Origin: Amphiscolops sp. MND2022
Taxonomy: Eukaryota
DNA: 64,000 bases
Assembly (NCBI GenBank): GCA_964187785.1
Contig: OZ076409.1
Location: forward strand, 75,208,001 to 75,272,000
Reading direction: 5' to 3'
Within the stretch, counting starts at the first letter, position 1; each line of letters begins with the position of its first letter. Positions 9,630 through 40,224 of the stretch are shown here, in pieces. The notes beneath the pieces are model-generated. The model was not told the DNA's origin and did not search any database. It saw only the letters and a program-made list of their open reading frames with translations. The position numbers and the translations under genes are program-made.

Positions 9630-9668
9630 TAGCCTTCCAAGTTGGCCTTCGGCCAACTTGGAAGGCTA
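9630..9668. repeat. Perfect 18-bp inverted repeat (subterminal hairpin type B)
   Basis: TAGCCTTCCAAGTTGGCC-TTC-GGCCAACTTGGAAGGCTA. Related copies at 12769-12811, 23692-23735 and 62279-62322. Confidence 0.95.
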
Positions 9669-13091: not shown

Positions 13092-16000
13092 GTGGAGGTT
13101 ATTTTATAATAATTAAAGTGTTTTTTTCCGGAGTTTGTGGCTTTGGAAAAAACAAAAGGCGAGAAATTGGGCACTCCGGGCTGAACCGTATACACTCAAA
13201 ATTCGCCCAATATTTATACGATCTCGAAACCCAGCCGTACGATTTGGCTGAAAATTTGCATGCGGCTAAAAAATCAGATTCTAAGAACTATTTCCTGCTG
13301 ACATTTTTTTGAAATTTTTGTGTACGTTTCCCCCCCGCCCCCTAAAGGGGTCAATTTTCCCCAATTTTGCACTTATGAGCCAAATTCTCAAAACTGGTGG
13401 ATCTGAGCGTATTCCCGGCGGGGTCAACTTTTAACGCGCGCTCCTCAGTAGACCTTTTTGACTTTTAACTTTGGTGGTACGTTCACCCCCCGAGGAGGAA
13501 ATGGCGTTTTTGTGACTTCCGGTCGAGGCTTTTTTCACCCAAAAAATAGAATTAAGCCAATTTTGAGCAGGAAGGAGTGGATTTAAAGTGCCTGTACCCT
13601 GCTAAAAATTTGTTGGGCTTGTAGCGATATATCTCATACCAAGTCTGGTTTTCACCCCCAAACCCCCCTTGGGACCAAAATTCACCCAAACTTTTTTTAC
13701 CTCTGTTTGTAGTTTTTTTTGCAAAATGTCGTCATTTCCATGGGTAAGGAGTTGAATTAGGGGCTCCTAATAGGGTACCAATGTTCAAGTACACTTGCAG
13801 TGCAACTGAGTGACCCTTTTGGGGCCTCTCCTGTGTTCGGCGAGGACCGGAAGTGGTGTAAACCCCCCTTTTTTGACGTTTGTTGACCTTGAGACTCGCG
13901 CTTAGATGACGTTTATGTCGCGCAAATCCTACAAACCAGTATTAGGATGACATGCTAGCCTACTAGAGAGCACTAAGGGAAACTATACTATACCGGAAGT
14001 AACCCCCCGTGACCGGAAGTTGTCATTTTTGACCGGAAATGGTCCAAAACATAGCGTAAAAGCAGTTTTCATTGCTTTTAAAGTCAACTTATTACTTTTT
14101 TCAGTCTGCGCGAGCTTGTCTTCAGATTCGTTTTTGTTGTCCGTGCACACTACAACAAATATACATCTGTAGAACTTTTGCTATAATATCGTCGGAGAGA
14201 GAAATAACGGGTTTTCGGAATTTTTTTCAAAAATGTTTGTCTATATCTATCATTTTTACCCAACGTTATTCAACAGTAGAACCACAGGGGTTAGTATCTG
14301 CCAAAATATATGCCTAACAAAACCACTCGTCCCATTGGTTGCAGTTTGAGCGTTCTAGCTTTGCCTGGTCACAAGTTGAGGGACTTCAAAAAGTTTCAAA
14401 TTTTTTTGGAAAATTTTTTTTAAACGTCACGTCTCCCAAAGTTAAGAATTTTCCACACAACTAGGATTGCAAGAGAATGCACATGGTAAGACCTATAAAT
14501 GGAGAGAAAAATTCCGTTCAGAACGTCTCTTTATCGTTACGTGACGTTAAAAGATGTTGCTTTGAATGTGAATTTGATAATGCGTCGAGAAGTAAAAGAG
14601 TGTGAATGGATCCTATGTCTCGACAAATACTCATCGCAATACATACGATGAACCCCAATTACCCTCACTTTCAGTTGGCTAGTACATCAGCGTCTTCCAA
14701 GGACCGTTTACCTATTTAAAAATTGTCAAATTCATTATTAATATCAGTTAGCAAGAAATATTTGAGTACATTGTCATCTCTCCCCATCGGGTGAGATGAG
14801 AATGTTCTTGCTAAAAGTCAAGTACTACGGCCCATTTTTGTTTTATTGCGACGTTTTCTGTGCCTTAGCACAAGGATACTTTTATGTCATCTCACTTTTG
14901 TTATACAATCTGACTTGTTGTTATAAAATTCTCGTCATTACTTTACCTAAACTTACTACCATGCATCTTTAACGTCAAAGCCAAATTCATTTAGACGCCC
15001 ACCATTCCGTAGGTATGCCGAGGTATGCCTTTCGAAGAAGTATGGCAAAACACAAACGGGCAAATGAAAAGGGCTGAAATTCAGAAACAGTCACAAACAA
15101 TTTTGACTATTTGACCGATGGTAGGTTTTTATATGGAACTTACACATCACTGACATTTCAAAACATTCCAGCTGACGCCCACTTACAAACATCAACGCCC
15201 ACGGTCCGTGGGCATGCCGAGGCATGCCCTTCGACGACGTATGGCAAATACCTTTTACGACGTCCCAACTTTCCCTAGGTGGAGGTTATTTTATAATAAT
15301 TAAAGTGTTTTTTTCCGGAGTTTGTGGCTTTGGAAAAAACAAAAGGCGAGAAATTGGGCACTCCGGGCTGAACCGTATACACTCAAAATTCGCCCAATAT
15401 TTATACGATCTCGAAACCCAGCCGTACGATTTGGCTGAAAATTTGCATGCGGCTAAAAAATCAGATTCTAAGAACTATTTCCTGCTGACATTTTTTTGAA
15501 ATTTTTGTGTACGTTTCCCCCCCGCCCCCTAAAGGGGTCAATTTTCCCCAATTTTGCACTTTTTAGTCAAATTCTCAAAACTGGTGGATCTGAGCTTTTT
15601 CCCGATGGGGACAACTTTTAACAAGCGCTGTTCAGTAGACCTTTTTGACTTTTTACTTTGGTGGTACGTTCACCCCCCAAGGAGGAAATGGCGTTTTTGT
15701 GACTTCCGGTCGAGACTTTTTTCACCCAAAAAATAGAAATAAGCCAGTTTTGAGCAGGAAGGAGTGGATTTAAAGTGTCTGTACCCTGCTAAAAATTTGT
15801 GGGGCGTGTAGCGATATATCTCATAGCAAGTCTGGTTTTCACCCCCGAACCCCCCTCGAGACCAAAATTCACCCAAACGTTTTACCTCTATTTGTGGTTT
15901 TTTCACAAAATGTCGTCATTTCCATCGGCAAAGATTTGAATTAGGGGCTCCTAATAGGGTACCAAAGTTCAAGTACACTTGGAGTGCAACTGAGTGACCC

Positions 16001-17464
16001 TTTTTGGGCCTCTCGTGTGTTCGGCAATAACCGGAAGTTGTATAAACCCCCCTTTTTTGACGTTTGTTGACCTTGAGACTCGCGCCTAGATGACGTTTAT
16101 GTCGCGCAAATCCTACAAACCAGTATTAGAATGACATGCTAGCCAACTAGAGAGCAATAAGGGAAACTATACTATACCGGAAGTAACCCCCTCTTGACCG
16201 GAAGTTGTCATTTTTGACCGGAAATGGTCCAAAACCTAGCGTGAAAGCTGTTTTTCATTGCTTTTAAAGTCAACTTATTACTTTTTTCACTCTGCGCGAG
16301 CTTGCCTTCAGGTTCGTTAGTGTTGCCCGTACACACTGCAACAAATATACATCTGTAAAATTTTCGCTATAATATCGTCGGAGAGAGAAATAACGGGTTT
16401 TTGGGTTTTTTTTTTCAAAAATATTAGTGTTTATCTGTCATTTTTACCCAACGTTATTGAACAGTAGAACCATAGGGGTTAGTCTTCGCCCAAATATATG
16501 CCTAACAAAAGCACTTGTCCCATTGGTTGCAGTTTGGGCGTTTTAGCTTTGCCTGGTCACAAGTTAGGGGACTTGAAAAACTTTCAAAATCATTTCCGAA
16601 ATTTTTTTCTAAACGTCACGTCTCCCAAAGTTAAGAAACTTCCTCACAACTAGGACCGCAAGTGAATGCATGTGGTTAGACCTATAAATGGAGAGAAAAA
16701 CTCCGTTTAGAACATCTCTTTATCGTAACGTGACGTTAAGAGATGTTGCTTTGAATGTGAATTTGATAATGCGTCGAGAAGTAAAAGTGTGTAAATGGAA
16801 CCTTTGTCTCGATAAATACTCCTCGCAATACATGCGATGAACCCCAATTACCCTCAGTTTCAGTTGCTTAGTACATCAACGTCTTCCAAGGACCTTTTAT
16901 CTATTTTGAAAATGTCGAAATCATTATTAATATCAGTTATCAAGAAACACATGAGCACATTCTCATCTCTCCCCATCGGGTGAGGTGAGAATGTTCTTGC
17001 TAAAAGCCAGGTACTACGGCCCCCTTTTGTTTTAATACGATGCATTCTCTGCTTTAGCTCATAGATATTTTTTTTCGCCTGATTGTTTGTATACTCTCTG
17101 ACTTCTTGTTATAAATCTCTCGTCATTACTTTACATAAATATACAACCAAAAATCATTATCGTCAGCGCCACATACATTTAGACGCCCACCATTCCGTAG
17201 GTATGTCGAGGCATACCTTTCGATTACGTATGTCAAAACGCAAACGTGATAAAAAGTGCTGGAAGTCTCAAACAGTGACAAACAAATTTGACTACTTGAA
17301 ATATGGGAGGTTTTTATATGGAACTTACACATAGCTGACATTTCACAACTTTGCAGCTGACGCCCACATGCCAACATCAACGCCCACCGTCCGTGGGCAT
17401 GCCGAGGCATGCCCTTCGACGACGTATAGCAAATCCCTTTCACCGACGCGCACTCTCCCGCTAG
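13092..17464 (+). mobile_element. Cassettes 6 and 7 (2.18-kb family, tandem pair; boundary 15278/15279)
   Basis: 2187 and 2186 bp with near-identical left ends. Cores at 15193 and 17378, each preceded by a degenerate second core about 200 bp upstream. Confidence 0.6.
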
Positions 17465-18737
17465 GTGGTCGGGAATTTTTTTTCTGCTCAAATCTTTGCC
17501 GCTGGGGGAGGGGCCCCTTGCGGCTGCTGTTCGGTTTTACTACCTACCAAAACCTGCTTTTTTTTTCACGATCTCGAGAACCACCCGTACGATTTTCCTG
17601 AAAATTTGCATACAGGCTTAGAATCAAATCCTAAGAACTATTTCCTACTGGCGTTTTTCCGAATTTTTTCAAAAAGTTGGTCAAAAACGCAACAAAAGTT
17701 GCCAATGGACATAAAAAACGCAACTTTTCGACTTTTAGGGCTCATAACTTTTTCCAGAGTGCCCGGAGCGACCCGTGTGCATCGGACACTTTTGTTCAGC
17801 ATTCTAGGAAGAGTGCGTGGGCAAATTTTCGTTTAAATCGGACAAAAATTGACTGAGAAATTAACGCAAATTTTGGTGCATTTTTTGCGAAGACTAGTCT
17901 ATCTCTGCCATTTTCGCCCAAAATTTTTCCCAGAGCTTTTACAGGAGGCAACCCCTGCCCAAATTTCTGCCGAGCAAACCCATTTGGCCCTAAATACGAG
18001 GTTTCAGCGTTCTAGCATTTCCGGGCAAAAAGTTGTGGGACTTAGAAATTTTTCAAAAAAATGCAAAAAGTGTAAAAAGTAACTTCCGGCGTCCCAAAGT
18101 CAAGAAACTTTCACACAACTAGTATTGCAAGTGAATGCATGTGGAAAGTACTTGGATAGACGAGAAAAATGAGCTATTATAAACCTCTGTAGCTTAATCT
18201 GACGTTGACTTATGACATTTTGAGTGTGAGCATCCTATAGGATTTTAATGTCAAAAATGAGATTTTGTAAGTCATGTCTCATCAAAAACTCGTCGGAATA
18301 CGTTCAATCATCCCCATAGCTGTTCAAGTACTGTGACTTAGTAGAGCAACGCCATTTAATGTCCTTGGACCCATTTTGAAAATTTTCGTTATCGTCTTAT
18401 TCGTCCGATATCCCGAAACAGTTGAGTACATTCCATCTCTCCCTTAAGGGGGAGATGAGAATGTACTCGCCAAACACCTGACACAATGGCCCATATTGGT
18501 TTTTATTTGACCTTTCTCAATGATATTACACACGGATAGCTGTGTTTGGTAAAAGTTTTCCATTGCACCATGTCTCCAGAAGCTAAACCACTTCTTTAGC
18601 CTACTACTTCTACTCAAACATCACTAACGTCAATGCCACATACTCGCATCAACGCCCACCGTCCGTGGGCATGCCGAGGCATGCCCTTCGACGACGTATG
18701 CCAAATAGCGCCACCTGGCGCCCCCAATTTCCGCTAG
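17465..18737 (+). mobile_element. Cassette 8 (1.3-kb class)
   Basis: 1273 bp. Hairpin A at 18424-18468, core at 18650-18696. Right half closely matches the right half of cassette 36. Confidence 0.6.
18424..18468. repeat. Subterminal hairpin type A (representative copy)
   Basis: GAGTACATTC-CATCTCTCCC-TTAA-GGGGGAGATG-A-GAATGTACTC. Present in the 1.3-kb and 2.18-kb cassettes, e.g. 14764, 16953, 25657, 26927, 28215. Confidence 0.92.
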
Positions 18738-19783
18738 GTGGTCCGGGGTAGTTCCCCACATTATTTAGTGCGAGGCCGGGGAGGGTCCCGATGCCGAGCT
18801 TAATTTTCGCGTGTCGTACTATATCCTTTAGCACACCAGTCAAAAAACGGCGATTTTCGAATTGAACCGATAAAACTTCTTTAAACTTTGCATGTGTACT
18901 TATCTTGCCGATGTAAGAATGATGTTCTGCTGGTCAAACATGATCCTATTACTTGGCGGGAAGTTATGAGCAAATGATCGGGTTTTTCACCCAATTTCGG
19001 TACTTTTTCGCTGCGATATCTGCAGCATGTGGATACAATTGGCTGATACTTTGCATGCGAGGCATTAATGATGTCAGGTGTTTGCATGCCAAAAATCATT
19101 AGGCTGGTGATACTAGGCTGAGAGATAGAAGTGAACGAAGTAACAGAAATTTGTGAATTTTCCTGTCATTGCGTCATAATTTCCGAACTTTTATACAAAT
19201 GATGTTTCCTTTAGCGGTAGCAGTACAGTCGATGTGTTTTCAACATCACGTGGCCAGGATAAAAAATTAAAAATAAAAAAGTTCTACAAAAGTTCTCCAA
19301 AAATTCTAAAAATTGCGAATTTTTTCAAAAAAAAAATTTTTCGGGTTCCATTGTATTTTTATACCAGGAATTCAAAAATCACATTATTTATCGTGTCAAC
19401 GGCGCCAAAATGGGTTTATTTTTAATATTGACCGCTTTCACCAGCTTGATATACCAGTTTCAGTAAGTATTTGAAAAATACTCAGGGTTGAGGCAAATGC
19501 ATAAGTAGCACGATTTTAAAACGTAATTTTATTTGTCACCGGTGTTCCGAGGGATGCACAGCAGCACGCAGGAACAACGGTGACCCGGAAGGAAGGCTGT
19601 AGATACTTGTTACGACCGAAGGCAGTCACTGTTTAGTTTTGTTCGACATGATTATGTACGTCGTTGCGATGTGCATCAGCAAAAATTCACATCAGTGACC
19701 CCAAAGTGGAACAAGTTATACATGAATTGAGAACAGACAGTACCGTTCGGCCCCCTGGTAATTGGTAGCTTTGCCTCCACTGG
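18738..19783 (+). mobile_element. Cassette 9 (1.04-kb family, no terminal core)
   Basis: 1046 bp. Diverged homologue of cassette 4, with hairpin C at 19535-19584. Confidence 0.55.
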
Positions 19784-22700
19784 GTGCGCCGGGGTGTTGT
19801 CCCCAGCCCTTTCCGCCGGCGAGGGTAGGGTTCCCTTCGCCGGCTTGAACTTCGCGAAGCCAAGCTTACGTATTAGCAAACATGCCCCCTAAAAAATGCG
19901 ATCTCGAAAATGAACCGTCAGAACCGGCTAAATTTTTGCATGCACCCATATTTTGGGAAGACAAGAATTTTTTTCTGCTGACGTTTTGCCGAAAAAATAT
20001 TCGGTCATGCCGAAATACCGTATTTTTTGAAGATAAAAGGGATAAATTTGTTGGTATATAAAGTTTACCTTTAATAACTTTTACACGGTGCACGCTAGCC
20101 CAATGATGCATACTAACAAAAAGTTGTGAAGTGTGGCGCGTCGAATGATGGTGCCAAAAAAGTGCCGATCGGGGCACTCAAAGTGCCAAAAAATGCCAAA
20201 ATGTTAAGTATCACCAATATCACCTAGGCTTATAGGTCAATTTGAGCACGTTAAACGGTCCGAACGGTATCGGACCAAAAGATCAAAAATTGTCAGCATT
20301 CAATGAGGGTTTCAAAAATGTAGTTTATACACGTGTAGGATTCATATTAAAAAAGTCGATTTTTTTGAGTGTATGGCATGATGAGCTAGGATGAAATTTT
20401 TTATAATGTACATTCCATTAAAGTACTCACTATGCAGCACCAGTAGCAGCGGAAGTCATATTTATGAAAAAGATCAAGGGGCTGGGGTCTACTCACGGTA
20501 CTATCGCAAAATAGGCCTGGGGCAATAGTGGTGCCAAAAAATGCCTTATAGTGAGGAATGATTTTTTTGTAAATCAGCTCATATTTCGATACGTGTGACT
20601 TCCTTGTCAACAACGGTCCGCACGGTCTCTAACAATATAACCAAAAATTGTCAGTGAGCTATTGTGACGACCAAAATGACATCGGTTGACCTCTAAGAGG
20701 CCTCTGGAAAAATTTGATTTTTTTGAGTCACGGTCCGAGTTGATCTGTTACGTTGTATGAACATTTCATATTCATGTTACTCATAACTGAGTACAGATAG
20801 CACCGTGGGTCACCTTTATCAAAATGAACATGGGGCAGCGGTCTAACGACTGAGTGCAAACATCATACCTTAGTTGCCACAGTGAAAGGAAAAAATTTTC
20901 AGAAGTGTTCTTTTCAATTTTTTATGTCGACTCGCAGTTACAAAAATGTGATTTTCTCTTCAGCAACGGTCAGAACGGTCTCGGACCATAAGATAAAAAT
21001 TTGTCAGTGTGATATGGTGGCACCCAGAAACACATCAGAACACTGGTAGGAAGCTTCTGAACGATTTTCGAATTTTCACGTGGGTCCGAGAGTTATAGTG
21101 TCACATCGTAACTACATTTCGGGTTTGCATATATCCTCACAGAGTACAGATAGCATCATGGGTCACCTTTTCGAAAAAGAACGTGGGCCACTGGCCTATC
21201 GATTTGTCATAAAAAGTTTTCAGTCACTGCTGCACGGCGTGAATAATATGCCAATATGGGGTATTTAGCATTTTTCTGTACGACTCGGACCTACAAAAGG
21301 CCCATTTCTGCTCCACCAACGGTCTGTACGGTCATCGACCATAAGGTCAAAAAGTGTCAGTGTGCTATGGTGACGCCCAAAAACTTATCAGTACACTTGT
21401 ATAGTGCTTCTGAAAAAGTTTGGATTTTTTAGGTTAGTCCGAGAGTTATGGAGAGTTATGTTGTCACATCGAAACTACATTTCGGGTATGTATATCTCCT
21501 GACAGAGTACAGAAAGCAACATGGGTCATCTTTTGGAAAGTGAACGTGAGCCAGTGGCCTACCAATTGGTGACAAAAAGTTTTCATCACTTGGTACAGGG
21601 AGTGGAAAAAGTGCTTACATGTGTTACATAGCATATTTTCAGGCGACTCGGACTTACAACAAGCTCATTTGCTGGCGAACAACGGTCTGTACGGTCTCCG
21701 CTCAGATGGTCGAAATTTTATCGTGAGCTATAGTAACGCCCAAAAACGTATCAGTTTACCTGTAGTATGATTCTTTAAAATTTTAGTGTTTTCGCGCTGA
21801 CTATGTTAGATATGTCATTGGGAACCGCGTTCTTTTCCTATCGAAATCGTGTTTTTGACTGCCCAAAAACAGTTTTTAAAGCTCAAAAACCACATAAAAT
21901 CTTGTTTTGCATAACATGGGATGTGAATACCATGAAAAAAGTGCCAACTGTGGGTTTGGAGTCATTTTGAGAAAATCAGATGCCATTAGACGTTACACAT
22001 CAGAAAATGATATTCCACATATCAATTTATGGGTTGAGTGAAAAATAGCCCAAATGAGTTTTCAGTCAATTAGGACTCTTTTTTGTTCACAACCATGTGT
22101 ACAGCTGACGTGGAACACATATTGACCTTCCACAATGGATATATTGCGATTTTGAGTGACAAAAGCCCCGTTGACAAACAAAATTCCAAGATAAAATTTT
22201 TTTCCAAATCTTTTTTTGATGTATAGGACCACCAAATTTTGCTCACAAACATCAACTATCCATTTCTGTTAGACCAGTGGCATGTGAAAAACACAACTTG
22301 GCATTGACAAGCCACTTACACTATAAATCGAGTAGTCATGGGCAACAACATTTGCAAATCAGTTGTGAAATTGGTCAAAAATTGATAAAACATCACAATT
22401 TTGGTGGAGTCAAACTAGCAAAATTGAGTTTTATCAGCAACTATTGGCTTTTAAAGCAATCCACTGGCCCTGTAAAATAGGAAAATGATGATTACCGAAC
22501 TTTTAAGGTTACATTTCAGAGTCTGACTCAGCTAAAAATATCATACTGAAGAGACGCATTACTACAACTTCAGTCTTTTTCCCGTTGTGTCACCACTTTT
22601 TTGGTATCGGCGGTCCCACCAATACTGTTTTTGGTCTAACACTAAACCTGAGGATCAACCAAGGTGGATACCAGACTTGAAAAATCCATGCAAGAAAATC

Positions 22701-24683
22701 GACATGTCAAAAGTTGTGATGAGGAGAGATATTTCCCAAAAATTCGTGTTATATGTCACATTCCATTCCACCTTTTTTAATCTGTGCTTGTCAGTTATTG
22801 TGTTAACGCTCGTCAACGATCTCACTTACAGCCAACGAGTCGATTACAGATGTAAAAAGTTTTAGTAACGCCTGTTTCCTCGTTCTTGACACATTTTACA
22901 TCGCGTTCGTACTTAACATAAAATATTTTTTCCTCAAACACCCAATTTTCGTCAGGTCGAAAATTGAATTTCTGTCTTTTGAGCCTAATTTATGTGTCTG
23001 ACGGAACCTGTGGCCGCCAAAATACCTAAAAACAAAAGTGTGATTGGTATCAAGTGCATCAGTGACATATCAGCCACGAAAAAACGTTTCGCGAAGACAA
23101 TTTCAACTTTGAGGTGAAAATTTGGTAGACACATTTTCACAGTAAAAACAAAATTAATGAAAGAATTACGTCTTTCCTGTCAATGACTATTAATATAGCA
23201 TCAGTGTTGCGAATTTGAGGTCTATAGAGAGGTGTATATAAAAAAATGTGGTGCAAAAAGCATTGTGTAATACCAAATTTACCAGAGTACTAACGAAATT
23301 CCACTATATTTTTTGCACTTTATATCAAAAATTTGGTAGTGTAAACCTTAATCAGCAGTTCAATTCAGTAGTTTCATTCAACTCTCCATATGCTTAATTT
23401 GTTTCAAAGTGCTTGATCTTTCCGTCATTCAACACTATTTTGTTACGGCTTAAAATAGTCATACCGTTTAAGACGCATTCTTCATTAATAGATGTGATCG
23501 TTTTTCATTACCAAAGACTGATTACTGATTCACCTTTACGGTAGCTAACCAAATTGTCAATAGGTTCAAAAGCTCTCATTACTTAGACTTTTCAGACTCT
23601 ATAGATTTGACAACCTACTCACATTTATAACATTTTTGTAGGAATGACATTGAACCATGTTTTTTGGAAACAGCTGATAACTGCATCTTGTGATAGCCTT
23701 CCAGGTTGGCCTTGTGTCAACTTGGGAAGGCTATCACTACAAAAAACAAAAAACCAGGAGTTCGTTTTGATGGGATTTTCCGGTTGATTATTTCATTCAA
23801 CATTCTATTGTCCCAGTAGTTGATACTTATGGTCAACAGACATTTTTCAGAATCCGTTAACCAAAATTAAAGGGCAAAAAATACATTTTTTTTGTTTCTT
23901 TTGCGGATTCAACTTGAATTTCGTGAATTTTTTAAGTACTGTTCAATCACAAAAAATTTTATACACCCCTGTTAGCTTCACAAAGCCACCAGCTACCTCC
24001 ACATGACAGTACAACGTTAGTTCCTCTGTTTAATAAGGCTTTCATTAGTGGTGTCATAGTGTCGAAAACAAATCACATGGAAATATACATGGATATAGAC
24101 AAACATCATCAAGTCGTGCTGGGAAATGTTCAGTATAAATGTCGTTCTCCCACTTAAAACTCTTTACAGAAAATCTTCTTTCCTTATTTTAGACAATTCA
24201 TAAAACATAGAAAAGATTTCCAACAACGTTTCTTAGACATAAATTAAACTTATATGAGGAATACAAAAATCAAAACATTCCGCATGTTAGCTGGGTCAGA
24301 TTTGTTCATTTTTTCCGTAGACAGATTACCGCACCCACCACTTTCAACGCCAATTTCACCCAATATTTGGAGAAACAAAATGTTCACGATTCAGACACAT
24401 TCCTATGAGGGAAAATTGACCAATTACCACAATTCAATGTATACCGTGGATTCTGCCAATGACGGTGCTTCTTTCCACTAATAAAGAGCTAGGACTATCT
24501 TTGCTTTCTTTCGACAACAGTTACCATTAACGATCCATTGGTAATGTGATGACATGTATCATTCAATCACAAACAACATTTCTCCAATACATGTCTTACG
24601 CTGGACGTAGTTAAGAGATCATTCTATCTTGCCTACCAAACGTTTATCACATCTAGTGCTTAGAGTTGAGCTGCCATCGCTAG
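19784..24683 (+). mobile_element. Cassette 10 (4.90-kb family, no terminal core)
   Basis: 4900 bp. Diverged homologue of cassette 3, with left hairpin at 19815-19844 and hairpin B at 23692-23735. Confidence 0.55.
20254..21800 (+). repeat. Internal tandem subrepeat of about 353-363 bp
   Basis: The AACGGTCnGnACGGT motif recurs at 20254, 20612, 20965, 21318 and 21681. Confidence 0.85.
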
Positions 24684-25883
24684 GTGGCCGGAAATTTTTT
24701 TTTCATCAAAATCTTTGCCATTGGGGGAGGGGCCCCGGATGGCCAGTAGTACGGGATAGCTTCCTACCAAATCCAGGCGGAAAAAACGTGATTTTGGAAA
24801 CTAGCCGTCAGAATTTGCTCAAATTTTGCATACGGCTTCCTATAACAATCCTAAGAACTAATCCCTACTGGCATTTTGCCCAAAAAGCGCAAAAAGTTGG
24901 TCAAAATCTTAGTTTTTTGGTCAAAAAATGGCAATTTTTCGAAAAAATTTTTTTTCAGAGACAATTACTCGTAACTGGTTCACCCAGCGCAAAAACGCCT
25001 AGCTGATTTATTGTTGGGGACTTCATGAGGAGTGCGTATACAAATTTTCGTCCAGATCGGAGAAAAAATGACTAAGTATTAGCCGGAATTCGGACGCATT
25101 TTTTCGCAAATTTTTGAAAACCTAGTCTATCTCTGCCGTTTTTTGCCCAGATTTTTTTCCAGGTCCTCTCCTAAAGGCCTCCCCTGGCCGGTTTACTTCC
25201 CAGAAAAACCATTTGGCCCTAAATACGGAGTTTCAGCGTTCTAGCATTCCCGGGCGAAAAGATGTGGGAGTTAGAAAAAATTCAAAATTTTTCAAAAAAC
25301 TTTTTTTTCGTTTCCCGGCCCCCCAATGAAGGGGAACGACCCCCCAACGAGGATTTTTGGTGAATTCACGTGGAAAGGCCTTGTTTTGTGGAGAAAATTG
25401 CCGTTTAGTGCGACTTTTTATCTTAACTTGACGTTGACCTCTGTCGTTTTGAATTTGATATTAGTATGTGTTGAGCATGTGAAAAGTTGATGATTTCAGT
25501 TGTTCTCTCGTGTTCAAGCCATTGAGATACAAGCGGTAGTGATCAAAATGTGATTTATCGCAATTTGGTGGTGCTTTTGGTGTATTTTGATTCTTTTAAA
25601 TAAAAAGTTGTTCTTTATATATTTGGTGTATTGATTCAAATGAACAAGAAACAGTTGAGTACATTTCATCTCCCCCCTTGTGGGGGAGATGAGGATGTAC
25701 CCGCTAAATGACACGCACAATGGCCCAATTTTATTTTTATGCGACGTTTTCTAGGCTTTTGCGCAAGCCCACTAATATTTAGACTGGTTTCCTTTTCTTT
25801 TACTCCAAAATTTTCCGTACTAACCACCTTACGCACCACCAGCTCAACGTAACATCTGTAACGTCAACGCCACATACTCGCAT

Positions 25884-25930
25884 CAACGCCCACCGTCCGT
25901 GGGCATGCCGAGGCATGCCCTTCGACGACG
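25884..25930 (+). repeat. 47-bp conserved terminal core (representative copy) with 20-bp palindrome
   Basis: CAACGCCCMCCGTCCGTGGGCATGCCGAGGCATGCCCTTCGACGACG. The 33 copies start at 2614, 5685, 13007, 15193, 17378, 18650, 25884, 27153, 28449, 29735, 31035, 32322, 33604, 35790, 37963, 40138, 41430, 42741, 44007, 45276, 46568, 47838, 49131, 50416, 51695, 53012, 54300, 55571, 56844, 58132, 59396, 60677 and 62648. Confidence 0.97.
25901..25920. promoter_or_regulatory. Match to the p53-family response element (RRRCWWGYYY x2, zero spacer); representative copy
   Basis: GGGCATGCCG-AGGCATGCCC matches 19 of 20 consensus positions. Function is not shown. Confidence 0.35.
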
Positions 25931-28900
25931 TATGCCAAATAGCGCCACAGGGCGCAAACTTGTCCGCTAGGTGGCCGGGAATTTTTTTTTCAGCAAAATC
26001 TTTGCCGCTGGGGGAGGGGCCCCGGGCGGCTGTTAACCGGAATTCATACTATGCAAAACCTATCACAATTCTCAGATCTCAGGATCCAGCCTGTAGGATT
26101 CGCTCAAATTTGGCACAGAGCCTCCTTGAATGATTATAAGAACTTTTTCCTAGTGGCGTTTTTCGATTGAAATATTTTATGTTGACCAAAATTGCGTTTA
26201 AAATGCCCATTGTTGCGTTTTTATTGTCTTTTTCGAATTTGACGGTCCATAACTTTTTTTGAGGTGCTCGGAGCAGGTCGCACGTGGAGAGCAATATTAC
26301 TCAGCACTAAAAGGGGAGTGCGTGAACAAAATTTCGTCCAAATCGGATGAAAATTGGATGAGTAATAGCCGGAAATTTGGCGCATTTTGTCGACTTTTTT
26401 CGAAAACCCAGTCTATCTCTGCCGTTTTTTGCCCAGATTTTTTCCCAGGTCCTCGCCTAAAGGCCTCCCCTGGCCGGTTTACATCCCAAAAAAGCCATTT
26501 GGCCCTTTTGCCGCAGTTTCAGCGTTCCAGCGTTTCCCGAACAAAAGATAAATGACTTAGAATTTTTTCAAAAAAAGGTTCAAAATTTTTTTTTCAAATT
26601 CAGGCCTCCCAAAGTCAAGAAACTTCCACACAACTAGTATTGCAAGTGAATGCATGTGGAAAGTGCTTGAATAGACGAGGAAAATGAGCTATTATAAAAC
26701 TCTGTAGCTTAACCTGACGTTGACTTATGACATTTTTAGTGTGAGCTTCCTATGTGCTAAAAAGTCAAAAAACGTAAGTCTCTTTGAAAACAAATCGGAA
26801 TACGTCCAGTCAACCCCAGAGCTGGTAAATTGCCGTTGTCTAGTGCAGCAACGCCATTTAGAGTCTTTTGACCCACTTTGATACCGTTTTGATACCGTCT
26901 TATTCATCCGATAGCACAAAACCGTTGCGTACATTCCATCTCCCCCTTTGTGGGGGAGATGAGAATGTACCCGCTAAATGACACGCACAATGGCGCAATT
27001 TTATTTTTATACAATGTTTTCTAGGCTGTCGCGCAAGCCCACTAATATTTAGACTGGTTTCTTTCTCTTTCACTCCAAACTTTCCCTACTAACCACCTTA
27101 CACACCATCAGCTCAACGTTACTTCTGTAACGTCAACGCCACATACTCGCATCAACGCCCACCGTCCGTGGGCATGCCGAGGCATGCCCTTCGACGACGT
27201 ATGCCCATTAGCGCCACAGGGCGCCCAATTTTTTCTAGGTGCCGGTGTCTTTTTACACAATGGGGGAAGTTGCGCGGTTGGGGAGGGTCCCTGACGCGCT
27301 TCCGTGAGATCAGGTTTTTCAACTAGTGAAATCGACAAAGAAAATTGGGATCTCGTAAACTAGCCATACGATTTGGCTGAAATTTGGCACACGTACCCCC
27401 CTCGGCACGGTGAAGATGATTCCCTACTGACGTTTTTCCCGCTAAACATTTTTTGTTGACCAAAATAACGGTTTTTGGGGTAAAATTTTCAACTTTTTTT
27501 AAATTTCATCTTATATCTCGCCACGGGTGCACGCTAGCGCTTCCAAACCTTGCTGACGAAAGTTTGCAAACTGTCTCAGGAATGCTGTGTGAAAATTTAA
27601 GCTCAATCGGACTCGAACTCGAGGAGATATAGCGTTTTTCCGGAGCGGGGGGGTTTAATTTTTCTAACGGTCCAGCTTATCTTTGCCATTTTTTCGAAAA
27701 TGCACTCGCCTAAAGGCCTCCCCTGGCCGGTTTTATTCCCAGCAAAACCATTTGGCCCTAAATACGGAGTTTCAGCGTTCCAGCATTTCCGGGCGAAAAG
27801 TTGTGGGACTTAGAACATTTCAAAAATTTTCAAAAAATTTTTTTTTCGTTATTTGGGCCCCCAAAGTGGGGGAAAAGACCCCCCAACCAGTAAATCAAGT
27901 GAATGCATGTGGAAAGGCCATGTTTAGAGGAGAAAAATGCCGTTTAGAACGTCTTTTTATCTTGACTCAACGTTGACTTATGACGTTTTGAAGGTGATGT
28001 TTGGAGGTGTAAAGCAAGTGAATAGTAAACGTTATGAGTATTTATCTGATCTGAAAGCCATTGAGATGCAATATGGTTTGCTCAAAACGTAATTCATTGC
28101 AGTTTGGCAATCAATCAACACCCTTTGTTGTCGTTTGACATACTTTTTTGTTGTTAAAATAAAAAATTTTGTGTATTTATTCATTTTTTTCTCATCAAAT
28201 AACTTGGAACAGTTGAGTACATTCCATCCCCCCCTTCCGGGGGAGATGCGAATGTACTCGCAAAAAGCACCGAACTACGGCCCTTACCTTCCCGAGCTAC
28301 GCAGTATAAGGATTACATATTGGTTCCGACATTTTCATAGAGTTAAATCTTGGTAATCTGTCTGGATATGCAGAAAAACCAGCACGTGCTTTTTTATACC
28401 AAGTTGCTCACAACGACAATTATTTTATATCAACGCCCCCATATTTATCAACGCCCCCCGTCCGTGGGCATGCCGAGGCATGCCCTTCGACGACCCGCAC
28501 CAAAATATGCGTTAGCGCGGTAGCCGCTAGGTGCCGGGATTTCTATTCGTTCGAGTATGTGGCGCGTGTGGGTAGGGCCCCTGGCGCGCTCTTGTGTTTG
28601 GGGGTTTCCTACTTCTAAATCACGTTCAGATTTCCGGGATCTCGTAAACTATCCATACGATTTGGCTGAAATTTGGCACACGTACCCCCCTCGGCACGGT
28701 GAAGATGACTTCCTACTGACGTTTTTCCCGCTAAACATTTTTTGTTGACCAAATTAACGGTTTTTGGTGGAAAATTTTTGATTTTTTTTAAATTTTATCT
28801 TATATCTCGCCACGGGTCCACGCTAGCGCTTCCAAACCCTGCTGACGAAACCTCGCAAACTGTCTCAGGAATGCTGTGTGAAATTTTCAGCTCAATCGGA

Positions 28901-31900
28901 CTTAAACTCGGGGAGATATAGCGTTTTTCCGGAGCGGGGGGGTTTCATTTTTCTAACGGTCCAGCTTATCTTTGCCATTTTTTCGAAAATGCACTCGCCT
29001 AAAGGCCTCCCCTGGCCGGTTTTACTCCCAAAAAAACCATTTGGCCCTAAATACGGAGTTTCAGCGTTCTAGCATTCCGGGGCGAAAAGTTGTGGTACTT
29101 AGTAAATTTCAAAAATTTTCAAAAATTTTTTTTTCGTTCTTTGGGACCCCAAAGTGGGGAAAAGACCCCCCAACCAGTAATTTGAGTGAATTCATGTGGA
29201 AAGGCCATGTTTAGCGGCGAAAAATGCTTTTTAGATCGTCTTTTTATTTTAACCTGTTGTTGACTTATGTTGTTTTGAAGGTGATGTTTGGATGTGTGAA
29301 GCATGTGAAAAGGTAATTTTTTGTGTCTTTATCTCTTCTAAAAGCCATTGAGATGCAATCTGTTTTGCTCAAAACGTAATTCAATGCAATTTGGCAGTCA
29401 ATGAACACAATTTGGTGTCTTTTGTTATATTTTTCTGTTGATATAATAAAAAATTTTGTGTCTTTATTAATTTTTTTTAAATAAAATAACTTGAAACAGT
29501 TGAGTACATTCCATCCCCCCTTCCGGGGGAGATGGAAATGTACTCGCTAAAAGCCGCGAACAAGAGCCCATACCTTCCTGCGCTACGCAGTATAAAGATT
29601 GCATGTTGGTTCCGACTTTTTGGTAGTGTTATATCTTGGTAATTTGACTGAATATGGAGAAAAATCAGCAAGTGCTCTTTTATAGCAAATTGCTGACAAC
29701 GACAATTTTTTTATATCAACGCCCCCATATTTATCAACGCCCCCCGTCCGTGGGCATGCCGAGGCATGCCCTTCGACGACGTATACCAAAATATGCGTTA
29801 GCGCGGTAGCCGCTAGGTGCCCGGATTTCTATTCATTAAAGTATGTTGCGCGTGTGGGTAGGGCCCCGTGGCGCGCTCTTGTGTCCCTGTTTTAAAATCT
29901 GCAATTTCCGGCTGCTTTCGGAGCGATTTTCTAAACTATCCATACGATTCGGCTGAAATTTGGCATGTGAGTTCCTATGACAGTTCTAAGAATCATTTCC
30001 TACTGGCGTTTTGCCCGGAAAATTTTTTTTGTTGACTTATAACGGTTTTTTTGGCCAAAAAATGCGATTTTTTCAAAAAAAATTTTTTTCGGAGCCCATA
30101 TCTTTTTTCAGGGTGCCCGGAGCGGGACGCGTTAAACTGATTATAAACTCTACGGTTCATGGGCTTTACGGAGAACCTAGGCTCGTTTCGATCGGACAAA
30201 TAGTCTTGGAGATATAACGGCATTTTTTGGGAATTTTTTGGAAAGTTTTCTAACGGTCCAGCTTATCTTTGCCATTTTTTCGCAAATGTACTCGCCTAAA
30301 GGCCTCCCCTGGCCGGTTTTAATCCCAGCAAAACCATTTGGCCCTAAATACGGAGTTTCAGCGTTCCAGCATTTCCGGGCGAAAAGTTGTGGGACTTAGA
30401 AAAATTTCAAAAATTTTCAAAAATTTTTTTTCCGTTTTCCGCCCTCCCCCCCGAGGGGAAAAGACCCCCCAACCAGTAATTTGAGTGAACTCATGTGGAA
30501 AGGCCATGTTTAGAGGAGAAAAATCCCGTTTAAATCGTCTTTTTATCTTTATTCAACGTTGACTTATGACGTTTTGAAGGTGATGTTTGGAGGTGTGAAG
30601 CACGTGAAAAGTAAACGTTATGAGTATTTATCTGATCTGAAAGCCATTGAGATGCAACCTGTTTTGCTCAAAACGTAATTCATATCAGTTTGGTAGTCAA
30701 TCAACACCCTTTGTTGTCATTTGACATCTTTTTTTGTTGATATAAGAAAAAATTTCGTGTATTTATTCATTTTTTTCTCATCAAATAACTTGAAACAGTT
30801 GAGTACATTCCATCCCCCCTTCACGGGGGAGATGAGAATGTACTCGCAAAAAGCCCCGAACTACGGCCCTTACCTTCCTGAGCTACGCAGTATAAAGATT
30901 GCATATTGGTTCCGACATTTTGATAGAGTTATATCTTGGTAATCTGTCTGGGTATGCAGAAAAACCAGCACGTGCTTTTTTATACCAAGTTGCTCACAAC
31001 GACATTTATTTTATATCAACGCCCCCATATTTATCAACGCCCCCCGTCCGTGGGCATGCCGAGGCATGCCCTTCGACGACGTATACCAAGATATACATCG
31101 AGCGCGTTAGCCTAGGTGCCGGGATTTCTATTCGATAAAGTATGTTGCGCGTGTGGGTAGGGTCCCTGGCGCGCTCTTGGGTATGGTGTTCACCAGCTAG
31201 GAAATAGGGGTCGATTTTTCGGGATCTCCTAAACTAGCCACACGATTTGGCTGAAATTTGGCACACGTACCCCCCTCGGCATGGTGAAGATGATTTCCTA
31301 CTGACGTTTTTCCCGCAAAATTTTTTTTGTTGTCCAAAATAACGGTTTTTGGGGGAAAATTTTGAATTTTTTTTAAATTTTATCTTATATCTCGCCACCG
31401 GTTTACGCTAGCGCTTCAAAACCCTGCTAAAGAAAGCTTGCAAACTGTCTCAGGAATGCGGTGTGAAATTTTCAGCTCAATCGGACTTAAACTCGGGGAG
31501 ATATAGCGTTTTTCCGGAGCGGGGGGGTTTCATTTTTCTAACGGTCCAGCTTATCTTTGCCATTTTTTCGAATATGCACTCGCCTAAAGGCCTCCCCTGG
31601 CCGGTTTTATTCCCAGCAAAACCATTTGGCCCTAAATACGGAGTTTCAGCGTTCCAGCATTCCCGGGCGAAAAGTTGTGGGACTTAGAAAAGTTCAAAAA
31701 TTTTCAAAAAAAATTTTTTCCGTTTTCCGCCCTCCCCCCCTAGGGGAAAAGACCCCCCAACCAGTAATTTGAGTGAATTCATGTGGAAAGGCCATGTTTA
31801 GAGGAGAAAAATGCCGTTTAGAACGTCTTTTTATCTTGGCTCAACGTTGACTTATGACGTTTTGAAGGTGATGTTTGGAGGTGTAAAGCACGTGAATAGT

Positions 31901-33690
31901 AAACGTTATGAGTATTTATCTGATCTGAAAGCCATTGAGATGAATATGGTTTGCTCAAAACGTAATTCATGGCAGTTTGGCAATCAATCAACACCCTTTG
32001 TTGTCGTTTGACATACTTTTTTGTTGTTATAATAAAAAATTTTGTGTATTTATTCATTTTTTTCTCATCAAATAACTTGAAACAGTTGAGTACATTCCAT
32101 CCCCCCCTTCCGGGGGAGATGAGAATGTACTCGCAAAAAGCACCGAACTACGGCCCTTACCTTCCCGAGCTACGCAGTATAAGGATTACATATTGGTTCC
32201 GACATTTTCATAGAGTTAAATCTTGGTAATCTGTCTGGATATGCAGAAAAACCAGCACGTGCTTTTTTATACCAAGTTGCTTACAACGACAATTATTTTA
32301 TATCAACGCCCCCATATTTATCAACGCCCCCCGTCCGTGGGCATGCCGAGGCATGCCCTTCGACGACGTATACCAAGATATACATCGAGCGCGTTAGCCT
32401 AGGTGGCCGGAAATTTTTTTTTTCATCAAAATCTTTGCCATTGGGGGAGGGGCCCCGGATGGCCAGTAGTACGGCATAGCTCCCTACGGAATCCAGGCGG
32501 AAAAAACGTGATTTTGGAAACTAGCCGTCAGAATTTGCTCAAATTTTGCATACGGCTTCCTATAACAATCCTAAGAACTAATCCCTACTGGCATTTTGCC
32601 CAAAAAACGCAAAAAGTTGGTCAAAATCTTAGTTTTTTGGTCAAAAAATGGCAATTTTTCGAAAAAAAAATTTTTCAGAGACAATTACTCGTAACTGGTT
32701 CACCCAGCGCAAAAACGCCTAGCTGATTTATTGTTGGGCACTTCATGAGGAGTGCGTATACAAATTTTCGTCCAGATCAGAAGAAAAATGACTAAGTATT
32801 AGCCGGAATTCGGACGCATTTTTTCGCAAATTTTTGAAAACCTAGTCTATCTCTGCCGTTTTTTGCCCAGATTTTTTTCCAGGTCCTCTCCTAAAGGCCT
32901 CCCCTGGCCGGTTTACTTCCCAGAAAAACCATTTGGCCCTAAATACGGAGTTTCAGCGTTCTAGCATTCCCGGGCGAAAAGATGTGGGACTTAGAAAAAA
33001 TTCAAAATTTTTCAACAAATTTTTTTTTCGTTTTCCGGCCCCCCAATGAAGGGGAACGACCCCCCAACGAGGATTTTTGGTGAATTCACGTGGAAAGGCC
33101 TTGTTTTGTGGAGAAAATTGCCGTTTAGAGCGACTTTTTATCTTAACTTGACGTTGACCTCTGTCGTTTTGAATTTGATATTAGTATGTGTTGAGCATGT
33201 GAAAAGTTGATGATTTCAGTTGTTCTCTCGTGTTCAAGCCATTGAGATACAAGCGGTAGTGATCAAAATGTGATTTATCGCAATTTGGTGGTGCTTTTGG
33301 TGTATTTTGATTCTTTTAAATAAAAAGTTGTTCTTTATATATTTGGTGTATTGATTCAAATGAACAAGAAACAGTTGAGTACATTTCATCTCCCCCCTTG
33401 TGGGGGAGATGAGGATGTACCCGCTAAATGACACGCACAATGGCCCAATTTTATTTTTATGCGACGTTCTCTAGGCTTTTGCGCAAGCCCACTAAAATTT
33501 AGACTGGTTTCCTTTTCTTTTACTCCAAAATTTTCCGTACTAACCACCTTACGCACCACCAGCTCAACGTAACATCTGTAACGTCAACGCCACACACTCT
33601 CACTAACGCCCACCGTCCGTGGGCATGCCGAGGCATGCCCTTCGACGACGTATGCCAAATAGCGCCACAGGGCGCAAACTTGTCCGCTAG

Positions 33691-36600
33691 GTGGAGGTTA
33701 TTTTATAATAATTAATGTGTTTTTTTCCGGAGTTTGTGGCTTTGGAAAAAACAAAAGGCGAGAAATTGGGCACTCCGGGCTGAACCGTAAAGGCCGATTT
33801 TATACTGTAAAAAACGCCCATTCTAACTACGATCTCGAAACCCAGCCGTACGATTTTGCTGAAAATTTGCATGCGGCTACAAAATCAGATTCTAAGAACT
33901 TTTTTCTGCTGACTTTTTTTTGGAATTTTTTTGTACGTTTCCCCCCCGCCCCCTAAAGGGGTCAATTTTCCCCAATTTTGTACTTATGAGTCATATTCTC
34001 AAAACTGGTTGATCTGAGAGCAATCCTTGTGGAGAGAACTTTTGTAGAGCGCTCTTCAGTTGACTTTTTGGAGTTTTTACTTTGGTGGTACGTTCACCCC
34101 CCACAGCGGAAATAGCGTTTTTGTAACTTCCGGTCGAGCAATTTTCCACCCAAAAATTAGAATTATGCCAGTTTAGAGCACGAAGCAGTAGTTTTAGCGT
34201 GTTCACACTCTCCTGAAGTTTTGTTGGGCGTATTGAGATAGACATGATATCAAGTGTTCAGTTCACCCCCATCACCCCCTGGACCGGAAATGAACTTTCT
34301 TTTTTCCCCTTTCTTACAGGAAGTGTCGATTTTCACCGGTAAGGAGTCCTTGTACGAGCAACTAGCAGGGCATCAAAATTGACGTACCACCTGGGGTCAA
34401 CTTAGTGAACACGTGTTGTCCAGTCATGGGTACCGCCATGACCGGAAATGGGGTCAAAACCCCCCTTTTAGTTGTTGTTTTATCAATTTGACTAGTGTTT
34501 GGTCCACATTCAAGTCGCGTAAAACAATTGAACCTGTGTGAGCATAAACTGCATGTTCACTGCGTAAACGTAACAGACACTGCCAGATACCGGAAGTAAC
34601 CCCCCGTGACCGGAAGTTGTCATTTTTGACCGGAAATGTTCCAAAAAATAGCGTAAATGCAGTTTTTCACTGCTTTTTAAGGTCAAGTAATTACTTTTTT
34701 CAATCTGCACGAGCTTGTCTTCAGGTTCGCTTTTGTTATCCGTGCACAGCGCAACAAATATACATCTGTAAAATTTTCTCTATAATATCGTCGGAGAGAG
34801 AAATAACGGGTTCTTGGGGCTTTTTTAAAAAAATAATAGTCTATATCTGTAATTTTTGTCCAAAGTTATTCAACAGTACTACCACAGGGGTTAGTCTCTG
34901 CCCAAATACATGCCTAACAAAACTATTTGTCACATTCGTCTCAGTTTGAGCGCTCCAGCTTTGCCTGGTCATAAGTTAAGTGACGTAGAAAATTTTCATT
35001 TTTTTTTCAAAAAAAATTTCTCGCCTTCAGTTCCTCCAAAGTAAAGAAACTTCCTCACAACTAGGATTGCAAGTGGATGCATGTCGCAAGCCCTATAATT
35101 GAAGCACAAAAAACCGCTTAGGACGTCTCTTCATCGTAATTTGACGTTAACGTATGGTGCTTTGAATGAGAGCTTGCTAAGGGGTCGAGAAGTCAAAGTA
35201 TGTAAATGGAACGTATGTCTCGTCGAAAAGTCATCGGAATACATGCAATGAACCCCAATTGCCCTCAATTGCAGCTGCCTAGTGCAACAACGTCTTTCAG
35301 GGACCTTTAACCTATTTTTATTTGTGTCAAAACTATTTTAAGTTCAGTTAGCAAGAAACACTTGAGTGCATTCTCATCTCTCCCCAGCGGGTGAGATGAG
35401 AATGTTCTTGCTAAAAGCCAGGTACTACGGCCCACTTTTGTTTTAATGCGACGCATTCTCTGCTTTAGCACATAGATATTTTTATTTCGCCTGATTTTCT
35501 GTATACACTCTGACTTGTTATTATGAGTTCCTCGTCAATACTTCACATATATTTACAATCATCAAACGTTATCGTCAACGCCAAATAGATTTAGGCGCCC
35601 ACCATTACGTAGGTATGTCGAGGCATACTTTTCGATTACGTATGTCAAAACGCAAACGCGATAAAAAGTGCTAAAATTCAGAAACAGTGACAAACAAATT
35701 TGACTATTTGACATATGGGAGGTTTTCATATGGAACTTACACATAGCTGACATTTCACAACATTGCAGCTGACGCCCACATACCAACATCAACGCCCACT
35801 GTCCGTGGGCATGCCGAGGCATGCCCTTCGACGACGTTTGCCAAATACCCTTTACCGACGCGCACTCTGCCGCTAGGTGGATGGTATTTTATAACAATTA
35901 AAGTGTTTTTTTCCGGAGTTTGTGGCTTTGGAAAAAACAAAAGGCGAGAAATTGGGCACTCCAGGCTGAACCTAAAAACACCCTAAAATTCGCCCGATTT
36001 TTTTACGATCTCGAAACCCAACCGTACGATTTGGCTGAAAATTTGCATGTGGCTCCTAATCAATGAGTAATGAAAAAGTGTAGAAGTGACTTTTCCTGGG
36101 AAAATTGTTTTTGTTGCACTTTTTGCGCAATTTTTGACCGATTGTTGCGTTTTTTATGTCACTTTCGACTTTTCAGGCAAAAAACTCATAGATGCTTTGA
36201 TCCTAGCGCATCCAGTGTTTCGACCAAAAAGTTGCAACATGGTCTTTTACGTACGTTGTGAAAATTTGGTAGCCATCGTATCACCCCCCACTGAGTTAGA
36301 GGGGAACTTCCGGTGGATTTTAGCACCCTAAAAACAAGGACCTCCTAAACTTCAGCATGAAGCCGTAGTTTTAGCGTGCTCATAACCTGCTGAAGTTTTG
36401 TTGGGCATGTTGAGATAGTCATGATAGCATGTGTTTAGTTCACCCCCCATCACCCCCTGGACCGGAAATGAACTTTTTGTGCACTATCATTCCGGAAGTC
36501 TCCAGTTTCACCGTTAAGCAGTCCTTGTACGAGCAACTACCAGGTCATCAAAATTGAAGTACCACCTGAGGTCAACGTAGTGACTACGTGTTGTCCAGTC

Positions 36601-39600: not shown

Positions 39601-40224
39601 ACCAATTATCATCAATTGCAGTTGCCTAGTGCAAAAACGTCTTTCAAGGACAATTTATTCGTTTTCCTAACTGTCCAAATTGCTTTTAAATTCAGTTAGC
39701 AAGAAACAGTTGAGTACATTCTCATCTCTCCCCATAGGGTGAGATGAGAATGTTCTTGCTAAAAGCCAGGTACTACGGCCCACTTTTGTTTTAATGTGAC
39801 GCATTTTGTGCTTTAGCACATAGATACTTTTATTTCGTCTGACTTTTCGTAGACACTCTGACTTGTCATTATAAATTTTTCGTCATTACTTTACATAAAC
39901 TTAATACCATACAACTTTAACTTCAACGCCACATACATTTAGACGCCCACTATTCCGTAGGTACGCCGCGGCATGCCTTTCGACGACGTATGTCAAAACG
40001 CAAACGCAATAAAAAGTGCTGAAATTCAGAAACAGTGACAAACAAATTTGACTACTTGAAATATGGGAGGTTTTTATGTGGAACTTACACATAGCTGAAA
40101 TTTCACAACATTGTAGCTGACGCCCACATGCCAACATCAACGCCCACCGTCCGTGGGCATGCCGAGGCATGCCCTTCGACGACGTATAGCAAATCCCTTC
40201 CACCGACGCGCACTCTCCCGCTAG
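33691..40224 (+). mobile_element. Cassettes 18-20 (2.18-kb family)
   Basis: Starts at 33691, 35877 and 38055; lengths 2186, 2178 and 2170 bp. Degenerate second cores at 35593, 37767 and 39941. Confidence 0.6.

Follow-up and report, generated by a model that had tools for sequence, protein, structure and literature searches.

Array and element organization

The window, which is the whole 64,000-nucleotide stretch analysed here (1..64000, + strand; G000:C1:75208001-75272000 of the 1.07-Gb Amphiscolops genome), is part of a head-to-tail array that goes on for megabases. It contains 37 CT[AG]GGTG junctions, all on the + strand; about five such 7-mers are expected per strand, and six are found on the - strand. 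The junctions divide the window into units of 1.0-4.9 kb. The unit starting at 24684 is a complete non-autonomous element of 1,287 bp, GTG...CTAG (24684..25970, +). At the junction CTAG^GTG (24680..24686, +), the right end of a 4.9-kb unit is followed by the first bases of this element, and the junction is the putative nick and insertion site.

The right end of the element carries a core palindrome (25901..25920, +), of which 33 copies are present in the window. The palindrome is located 5' of 33 of the 37 junctions, and the four junctions without it include that at 24680. A 27-nt pattern of the palindrome gives 4,940 exact matches genome-wide. The copy at 25901-25920 has a C-GA-G mini-loop and an outer CGTC/GACG stem, and shows a compensatory change from GGG/CCC to AGG/CCT. 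For the left end, the pattern CTDGGTG-N28-42-GGGKAGGGNCC gives 4,618 matches genome-wide, versus 0 for the reversed pattern.

The largest array extends over about 6 Mb of C1. Elements were found in nine of nine 10-kb samples at C1:70.85-76.05 Mb, and in none of the 11 samples outside. The last of the nine (C1:76.05 Mb, L132) belongs to an inverted block within the 6-Mb array. At another locus (L007), one array adjoins a second of opposite orientation, and this stretch contains an assembly gap. The 161 units compared fall into 83 subfamilies. Adjacent units of one subfamily are found in 7 of 160 cases (shuffled mean 2.3, maximum 11), and some stretches have 5-7 copies of one family in a row.

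The only ORF of at least 150 aa in the window (11039-11542, - strand) lies within a 1,033-bp unit and is probably spurious. Two 4.9-kb units have internal 363-bp tandem repeats at 6947-7762 and 21088-21755. A further conserved hairpin with a variable loop, CATCTC(C/A)CCC-loop-GGGAGATG, is observed at about 25667-25692 and in most 1.3-2.2 kb units, about 280-450 bp before the right end.

Left-end hairpin

The left-end hairpin of the unit at 24684 is located at 24717..24743 (+). It consists of an outer stem GCCAT/ATGGC, an inner GGG:CCY stem and the apex GGGGAGGG (24724-24731, +). The left-end hairpin of the next unit (26004..26030, +) differs from it by A-T to G-C and T-A to C-G changes in the same context, so that the two compensatory pairs claimed in the original prediction are confirmed. 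The five hairpins quoted there are also present where it had placed them. Left-end hairpins are found in the 3.07-kb family (2728..2759, +), in a 4.9-kb unit (19815..19844, +), in the GCGCG/CGCGC families (28562..28589, +) and in the 1.98-kb family (60798..60821, +), where the arms are GGAATC/GATTCC and those of a sister family are GGATTC/GAATCC. Many families have in addition a small GGGG...CCCC hairpin ahead of the main one, in the first 10-30 nt (e.g. 18738-18760 and 60765-60785).

In the non-autonomous elements, which are joined at CTRG^GTG, the hairpin is located about 33-60 nt from the 5' end. The GGG(G/T)AGGG apex, predicted to be conserved, is located 3' of 32 of the 37 window junctions. 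The five apex-less junctions belong to the 2.18-kb family, which is well represented despite having no apex; a different hairpin folds at the same distance from its 5' end (33719..33752, +, limits approximate). Each junction had been predicted to be bracketed by two hairpins. This arrangement is found at 28 of the 37 junctions and fails at the remainder, the palindrome being gone before four of them (including that at 24680) and the apex after five.

For comparison among families, 245 left ends were collected from the window, 200 kb of its flank and 60 other stretches, and were grouped into 63 families at 80% identity. The collection filter required a GGG..GGG..CC apex and allowed a distance of about 30-75 nt; apex conservation within this set is therefore circular. 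The 63 families share a shape made up of the outer stem, NGGG, KAGGGN as the loop, and CCY. For 60 of the 63 families, the distance between the 5' G and the start of the loop is 39-47 nt. By inspection, a G-quadruplex was rejected, as only two G-tracts are conserved, and pairing of the apex with CCTCC or CCCT of the right end was rejected, as no consistent covariation was seen.

In the units at 10670, 50498 and 58213, which had been described as weakly paired, the arms are CGAG/CGAG, GGAG/CGAC or GAGGAG/CGACGA. The arms do lack Watson-Crick closure; they close if GA is allowed opposite GA, and thus fit predicted tandem G.A pairs. Sheared tandem G.A pairs are stable. The hairpin at 10700..10735 (+) has the outer stem CGAG/CGAG with predicted tandem sheared G.A pairs, and that at 50527..50562 (+) has the arms GAGGAG/CGACGA with two predicted tandem G.A units, the same type being found at 58213. 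With our own G.A bonus, introduced after the data had been seen, tandem G.A pairs improve the fold of 32 of the 63 families on the + strand and of 2 of the 63 on the - strand. Among 100 tandem-mismatch types tandem G.A ranks first, and the next two (18 and 17) are overlapping variants. According to ViennaRNA, the + strand folds better than the - strand in 51 of the 63 families with DNA parameters, and in 58 of the 63 with RNA parameters. This difference between the strands argues for folding of one strand, the GTG...CTRG strand, and not for a cruciform.

Covariation of the arms

Covariation was assessed by our own arm-swap and tree-edge tests. When left arms are paired with right arms, the cognate score is 16.7 on our own pairing scale, versus 10.0 for non-cognate arms, and the best of 10,000 permutations reaches 12.1. 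In a swap test that allows for kinship, 81 variants were reduced to 35 disjoint sister pairs according to the sequence outside the hairpin. The own pairing is higher in 25 pairs, lower in 6 and tied in 4 (p=4e-4). Using only Watson-Crick and G.T pairs, with no G.A bonus, the result is 24/7/4. Decoy arms give 17 higher to 13 lower, and 14 to 14. The signal comes from the more distant pairs; the ten closest sister pairs give 3 higher, 4 lower and 3 tied.

RNAalifold with a sequence-only alignment of 19 window ends recovers only a near-invariant inner stem of 3 bp with no double changes, and over all families it likewise returns the inner stem and no outer stem. The outer stem is missed because it shifts register between families. 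In the tree-edge test, 58 edges were usable and 25 of 83 were unalignable. On the 58 edges, double changes keep the pair in 12 cases and break it in 10, and single changes keep it in 21 and break it in 50. Single hairpins are unremarkable against shuffled sequences (z from -2.3 to +1.5). Thus the covariation is real but moderate, because the swap tests are positive while RNAalifold, the tree edges, the closest pairs and the shuffles are weak, and the register slides between families. The outer stem had been called fully covarying. This does not hold, given no double changes in RNAalifold and 12 kept changes against 10 and 50 broken ones on the tree edges. The proposal of a selected secondary structure fares better: the swap and strand tests support selection on a single-stranded DNA fold, with covariation that is moderate and not full.

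Element ends and insertion sites

The elements have the ends GTG...CTRG. Among 162 3' tetranucleotides, CTAG is found 150 times, CTGG 11 times and CTTG once. Solo copies and copies at array ends terminate in CTRG (once in CTTG) and are followed by unrelated sequence, which mostly starts with GT or NT. The R of CTRG goes with the unit on its upstream side (mixed groups: 0 of 18, versus 4 of 12). The longest terminal inverted repeats in 100 unique units are 4-8 nt, the same as in shuffled sequences. HLE1 elements have a hairpin 10-15 nt before the 3' end; here, a hairpin GCGCC-ACAG-GGCGC precedes the 3' end in some families and is absent in others, and the main palindrome lies 40-60 nt upstream. 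There are 31 types of right end, some of them without a fold, and several families have no right-end palindrome; nearly all left ends have the hairpin.

Empty sites were found for two of the three solo elements tried. For L004, the flanks are contiguous in five empty copies. Because its target is CTGG and the element ends in CTAG, L004 was inserted without target duplication. For L006, the flanks are contiguous in six empty copies; CTTG is present on both sides, so that this case alone is ambiguous. For L003, no empty site was found. These sites show that insertion takes place 3' of CT(A/G/T)G with no target-site duplication. In L006 the 7 nt preceding CTTG are the same in the upstream target and in the right end of the element (L006:3600-3613 and 4858-4869), which may be chance or a repair trace.

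In one family, 124 left ends were matched, and 99 of the 100 listed follow CTDG. Of these 100, 88 lie after the right end of an element and 12 after other DNA (CTTG 7, CTGG 4, CTGT 1). Within 264 kb of the array, each of the 162 left ends is preceded by another element's right end, and 97 distinct combinations of right and left ends are found; the same 264 kb offers 2,128 CTDG and 246 CTDGGT sites on the + strand. Elsewhere, one element had inserted at an internal CTTG. In several loci (L140-L145 and L147), elements lie in a tandem repeat of about 172 bp at the same site, CTGG^GATGTGAG, which is a second preferred target.

A 40-kb duplicate is located to the right of the window. Among 24 unit pairs, 23 are at least 99.9% identical, and the two copies, which could be two haplotypes, differ by six exact whole-unit indels. 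These comprise seven units, four events in one copy and two in the other, and all six fall at the 4^3 junction. Whether duplicate or haplotypes, unit turnover by gain or loss outruns point mutation. One 2,714-bp unit (L035, window coordinate 99795) is a chimera of one family's left end and another's right end, and its counterpart in the duplicate is a normal unit of 1,971 bp.

Autonomous partners

The partners of these units are elements of 12-25 kb with the same ends, which encode a HUH-Rep/Pif1/GIY-YIG protein of 2,100-2,850 aa and an OB-fold protein. The nearest one (L041; G000:C1:75162576-75174801) is 12,226 bp long, lies 33-45 kb to the left of the window and has ORFs of 2,349 and 308 aa. 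Over its first 793 bp it matches the window unit at 29817 with 94.6% identity, and its right end has the core palindrome and CTAG. A second autonomous element of 13.7 kb has a 2,377-aa ORF and the apex hairpin; its right end is without the palindrome.

In the two proteins scanned with Pfam, Helitron_like_N (5e-10 and 1e-7) and PIF1 (6e-11 and 4e-7) are all above the cut-off, and GIY-YIG is just below it in one of the two. A profile search gave SLX1 nucleases (6e-14) and Helraiser (7lcc, 1e-19); a single protein query gave no Helraiser match at E<=0.01. The HUH Rep has a Y-x-x-(K)-Y motif and is fused to the Pif1 helicase. Its motif 2, E-F-Q-x(5)-[PQ]-H-x-H, exceeds the motif of the genome's own HLE1- and HLE2-like ORFs by two residues and is without the Arg found there. 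The model of the second ORF (pLDDT 86) shows weak matches to RPA, LEF-3 and CST OB-folds (best E 5e-5, TM about 0.2-0.3). The Rep domain modelled without an alignment has a pLDDT of 36 and is unusable.

In the genome, 129 matches to the Rep region were found. Three of them are 100% identical, and 34 lie at C1:70.56-76.46 Mb, all on the + strand. An apex-bearing CTRG^GTG end is found upstream of 19 of 20 sampled RepHel loci, and also in L016 and L041. The locus at C5:24.27 Mb has no such ends within 40 kb. The ORFs start 1-11 kb from the left end, and the hairpin distance is fixed to the DNA end and not to the ORF. Other large transposase clusters are found near contig ends (G000:C2:102-103.9 Mb, C3:2.4-3.9 Mb and C1:3.5-3.6 Mb); a centromeric role is not suggested because the clusters are not one per chromosome. 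In two elements present in several copies (L074-L077), the RepHel frame is split at the same point into about 1,690 and 592 aa. The genome also contains ordinary HLE1-like and DUF6570-bearing HLE2-like Helitrons (L082-L084 and L086-L096), and one HLE2-like ORF has a JAB-domain match.

The hairpins had been likened to substrates of HUH single-strand transposases. This is supported in that the partners with the same ends encode a HUH Rep, and has to be corrected as to its kind, which is a Y2 Helitron-type Rep-helicase and not the small IS200/IS605/RAYT type. IS200/IS605 elements are prokaryotic, have a small Y1 enzyme without helicase, subterminal hairpins and a tetranucleotide target, insert in a fixed orientation without duplication, and use guide pairing, of which no sign is seen here. 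IS200/IS605, REP-RAYT and Replitrons are ruled out by the Rep-helicase of 2,100-2,850 aa, as opposed to a small Y1 transposase.

Phylogenetic position

Relatives of the protein form 519 clusters at E<=0.001. They occur in hagfish, tunicate, amphipod and metagenome records, and the named ones are Myxine, Styela, Hyalella and Perkinsus. Scans of metagenomes (queries P0047 and P0155), viruses and prokaryotes returned none of the DNA around the relatives, and the end structure is known from the Amphiscolops genome alone.

Trees were calculated from Rep and helicase with no outgroup, using 13-19 HLE1-like rows and 7 DUF6570-bearing HLE2-like rows. The references are one in-genome family and the nearest database matches, labelled by Pfam profile with their termini unchecked. 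A motif filter dropped 20 of 72 rows in one tree and 3 of 51 in another. The group is separate from the HLE1- and HLE2-like references on a long stem, with an SH-aLRT of 100 for its own clade and 100 for HLE1. The HLE2 stem, based on the 7 references, is short (0.16-0.18; support 0.76/85), and it is lost when the tree is calculated from Rep alone. DUF6570 is absent from the two proteins scanned and from the Pfam annotation of 50 matches, and its profile-profile probability is 0.3%; it is present in 9 of 10 in-genome HLE2-like ORFs. The trees thus place the group as a clade apart from the sampled HLE1 and HLE2. A divergent, long-branched HLE2 offshoot is still conceivable, because HLE2 is less well supported, the trees lack an outgroup and the reference set is narrow.

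The literature searched, with Repbase and subscription journals outside its scope, gave no description of GTG...CTRG ends or junction targeting. They are absent from the portions available of PMC5148889, PMC11417382, PMC13286980, PMC6431247, PMC10288648, PMC4778049, 10.64898/2026.09.17.752431, PMC13085455 and PMC11934779. The Helitron lineage is apparently undescribed. This clade could be among the 'unclassified' elements of HELIANO, which come from 19 genomes and form at least four clusters.

Proposed mechanism and rival explanations

The results describe an active, self-arraying Helitron lineage with a moderately covarying left-end hairpin. We propose, with a probability of roughly 0.7, that the hairpin is a signal which is bound as single-stranded DNA by the Rep-helicase and would direct the nick to CT(A/G/T)G^GTG, some 42 nt upstream. 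The hairpin is the strongest candidate for this role, because it is almost universal, lies at a fixed distance, is strand-specific and is kept in non-coding families. The + strand would be nicked at CTDG^GTG, unwound 5' to 3' by the Pif1 domain and coated by the OB-fold protein. A second cut after CTRG would be followed by circularization with a CTRG^GTG joint, giving a presumed rolling-circle pathway with a single-stranded circular intermediate. Nick, unwinding, cut and circle joining are modelled on Helraiser (PMC4778049, as far as its text was available). Integration would reuse the same recognition, the best target being CTRG^GTG followed by a resident hairpin. Start, stop and target would all read CTDG^G; therefore each insertion would rebuild a target, and arrays would grow as shuffled cassettes. 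That the hairpin itself attracts insertions to junctions may be put at about even odds. The hairpin and the right end are not separable as targeting signals, because every junction combines the two, an upstream right end with a downstream left end.

The hairpin might instead act only in the donor or the circle, the arrays arising from right-end targeting, from local hopping, or from purging of solo copies with tolerance of arrays. The 88 of 100 listed left ends that follow a right end fit this explanation, as does the palindrome, which is very conserved in most families; however, several of the 31 right-end types have no fold, and the genomic targets resemble the left side too, being mostly CTDG^GT. 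The runs of 5-7 one-family copies are also in line with it, but same-subfamily neighbours are rare (7/160). Segmental duplication also expands arrays. Purging leaves unexplained why internal CTDG sites in non-coding units are unused. We regard this explanation as unlikely on the whole. It is considerably less probable that the hairpin works as RNA at a transcript start, or that, independently of cleavage, its apex is bound as a duplex by a host zinc-finger factor. Tandem G.A and G.U pairs are common in RNA, and the + strand also folds better with RNA parameters. However, no Rfam match was found in the window, a duplex site would not need covarying arms, and both possibilities are at odds with a hairpin that is kept in dozens of non-coding families needing only cis signals and is held at a fixed distance to the DNA end.

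The array might also be a satellite or an assembly chimera, with the hairpin an inherited palindromic sequence without function. Large near-identical duplications do exist, and single hairpins are no more stable than shuffles. The clean empty sites of solo elements have already largely refuted this explanation. The type of left end is associated more closely with the right end of the same unit (NMI 0.67) than with the upstream right end (0.39; shuffles at most 0.34), the indels fall exactly at the 4^3 junction, and the swap and strand tests are positive. We consider it very improbable.

A broader proposal extends the nick-placing role of the hairpin: one structured 5' signal would serve as origin, as terminator of the upstream element and as landing pad. 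With it, a widespread, undescribed Helitron lineage with a Rep-Pif1-GIY-YIG protein and an OB-fold protein would build, in an animal chromosome, an integron-like, self-extending cassette array of several megabases, which gains or loses units faster than it accumulates point mutations, and would act as a natural site-directed rolling-circle integrase. This proposal is tentative, and we hold it at somewhat below even chances.

Significance and comparison with known systems

Left-end recognition and target choice of Helitrons are poorly known, and the model element tested uses random A^T sites. The many intact, partly identical transposase copies, the dozens of compensated end variants and the exact empty sites are a ready substrate series. 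Self-targeting, if true, would explain how an active transposon fills megabases without hitting genes, and would be a route to satellite-like arrays besides unequal exchange. Finders keyed to TC...CTRR ends or to terminal inverted repeats would miss GTG...CTRG ends.

According to the available text of PMC4778049, PMC11417382 and PMC5148889, HLE1 has TC...CTRR ends and an A^T target, and HLE2 has inverted repeats, a T^T target and hairpins at both ends. [quoted passage not shown] They differ in having 5' GTG instead of TC, the target CTDG^GT instead of A^T and a conserved 5' hairpin, and also in the two extra residues of Rep motif 2 without Arg, the C-terminal GIY-YIG and the separate clade. 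For Helraiser, the available text of PMC4778049 gives randomly distributed insertions and an essential left end, and names a hairpin only at the right end. With HLE2 (Helitron2/Helentron; Fusarium FoHeli, PMC5148889, available text) the elements share hairpins near both ends and a long RepHel (2,000+ aa). Unlike HLE2 as described in those sources, they have no asymmetric terminal inverted repeats, no T^T target and no DUF6570, and the 3' end is CTRG. One HLE2 family with a captured GIY-YIG, HelenSM92, is mentioned in the text available of PMC11417382.

The third Helitron clade of Paramecium, set beside our elements by description only, also lies outside HLE1 and HLE2 and has satellites inside elements (PMC13085455, available portion). 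Sequence-specific, orientation-fixed insertion has been proposed for it, and its right end CCAA resembles the end of the telomeric target. Its target is a C-rich telomeric repeat, with a CCAA end and ORFs of 9-10 kb, whereas the elements here target other elements. The portion available contains no such left hairpin, GIY-YIG or RPA. IS91, as described in the available text of PMC10288648, likewise has a HUH enzyme, a tetranucleotide target, orientation-specific insertion without duplication and subterminal hairpins. It is prokaryotic, has no fused helicase and inserts 5' of its tetranucleotide, in contrast to the insertion 3' of CTDG here. Megabase blocks of Helitron-related sequence are also known from Hydractinia HSymSHlR (PMC11934779, available text), and tandem Helitron insertions are cited in the accessible part of PMC5148889. 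According to these texts, such blocks consist of one decayed repeat or of truncated copies, whereas the Amphiscolops array mixes 83 subfamilies at an exact junction and includes intact autonomous elements.
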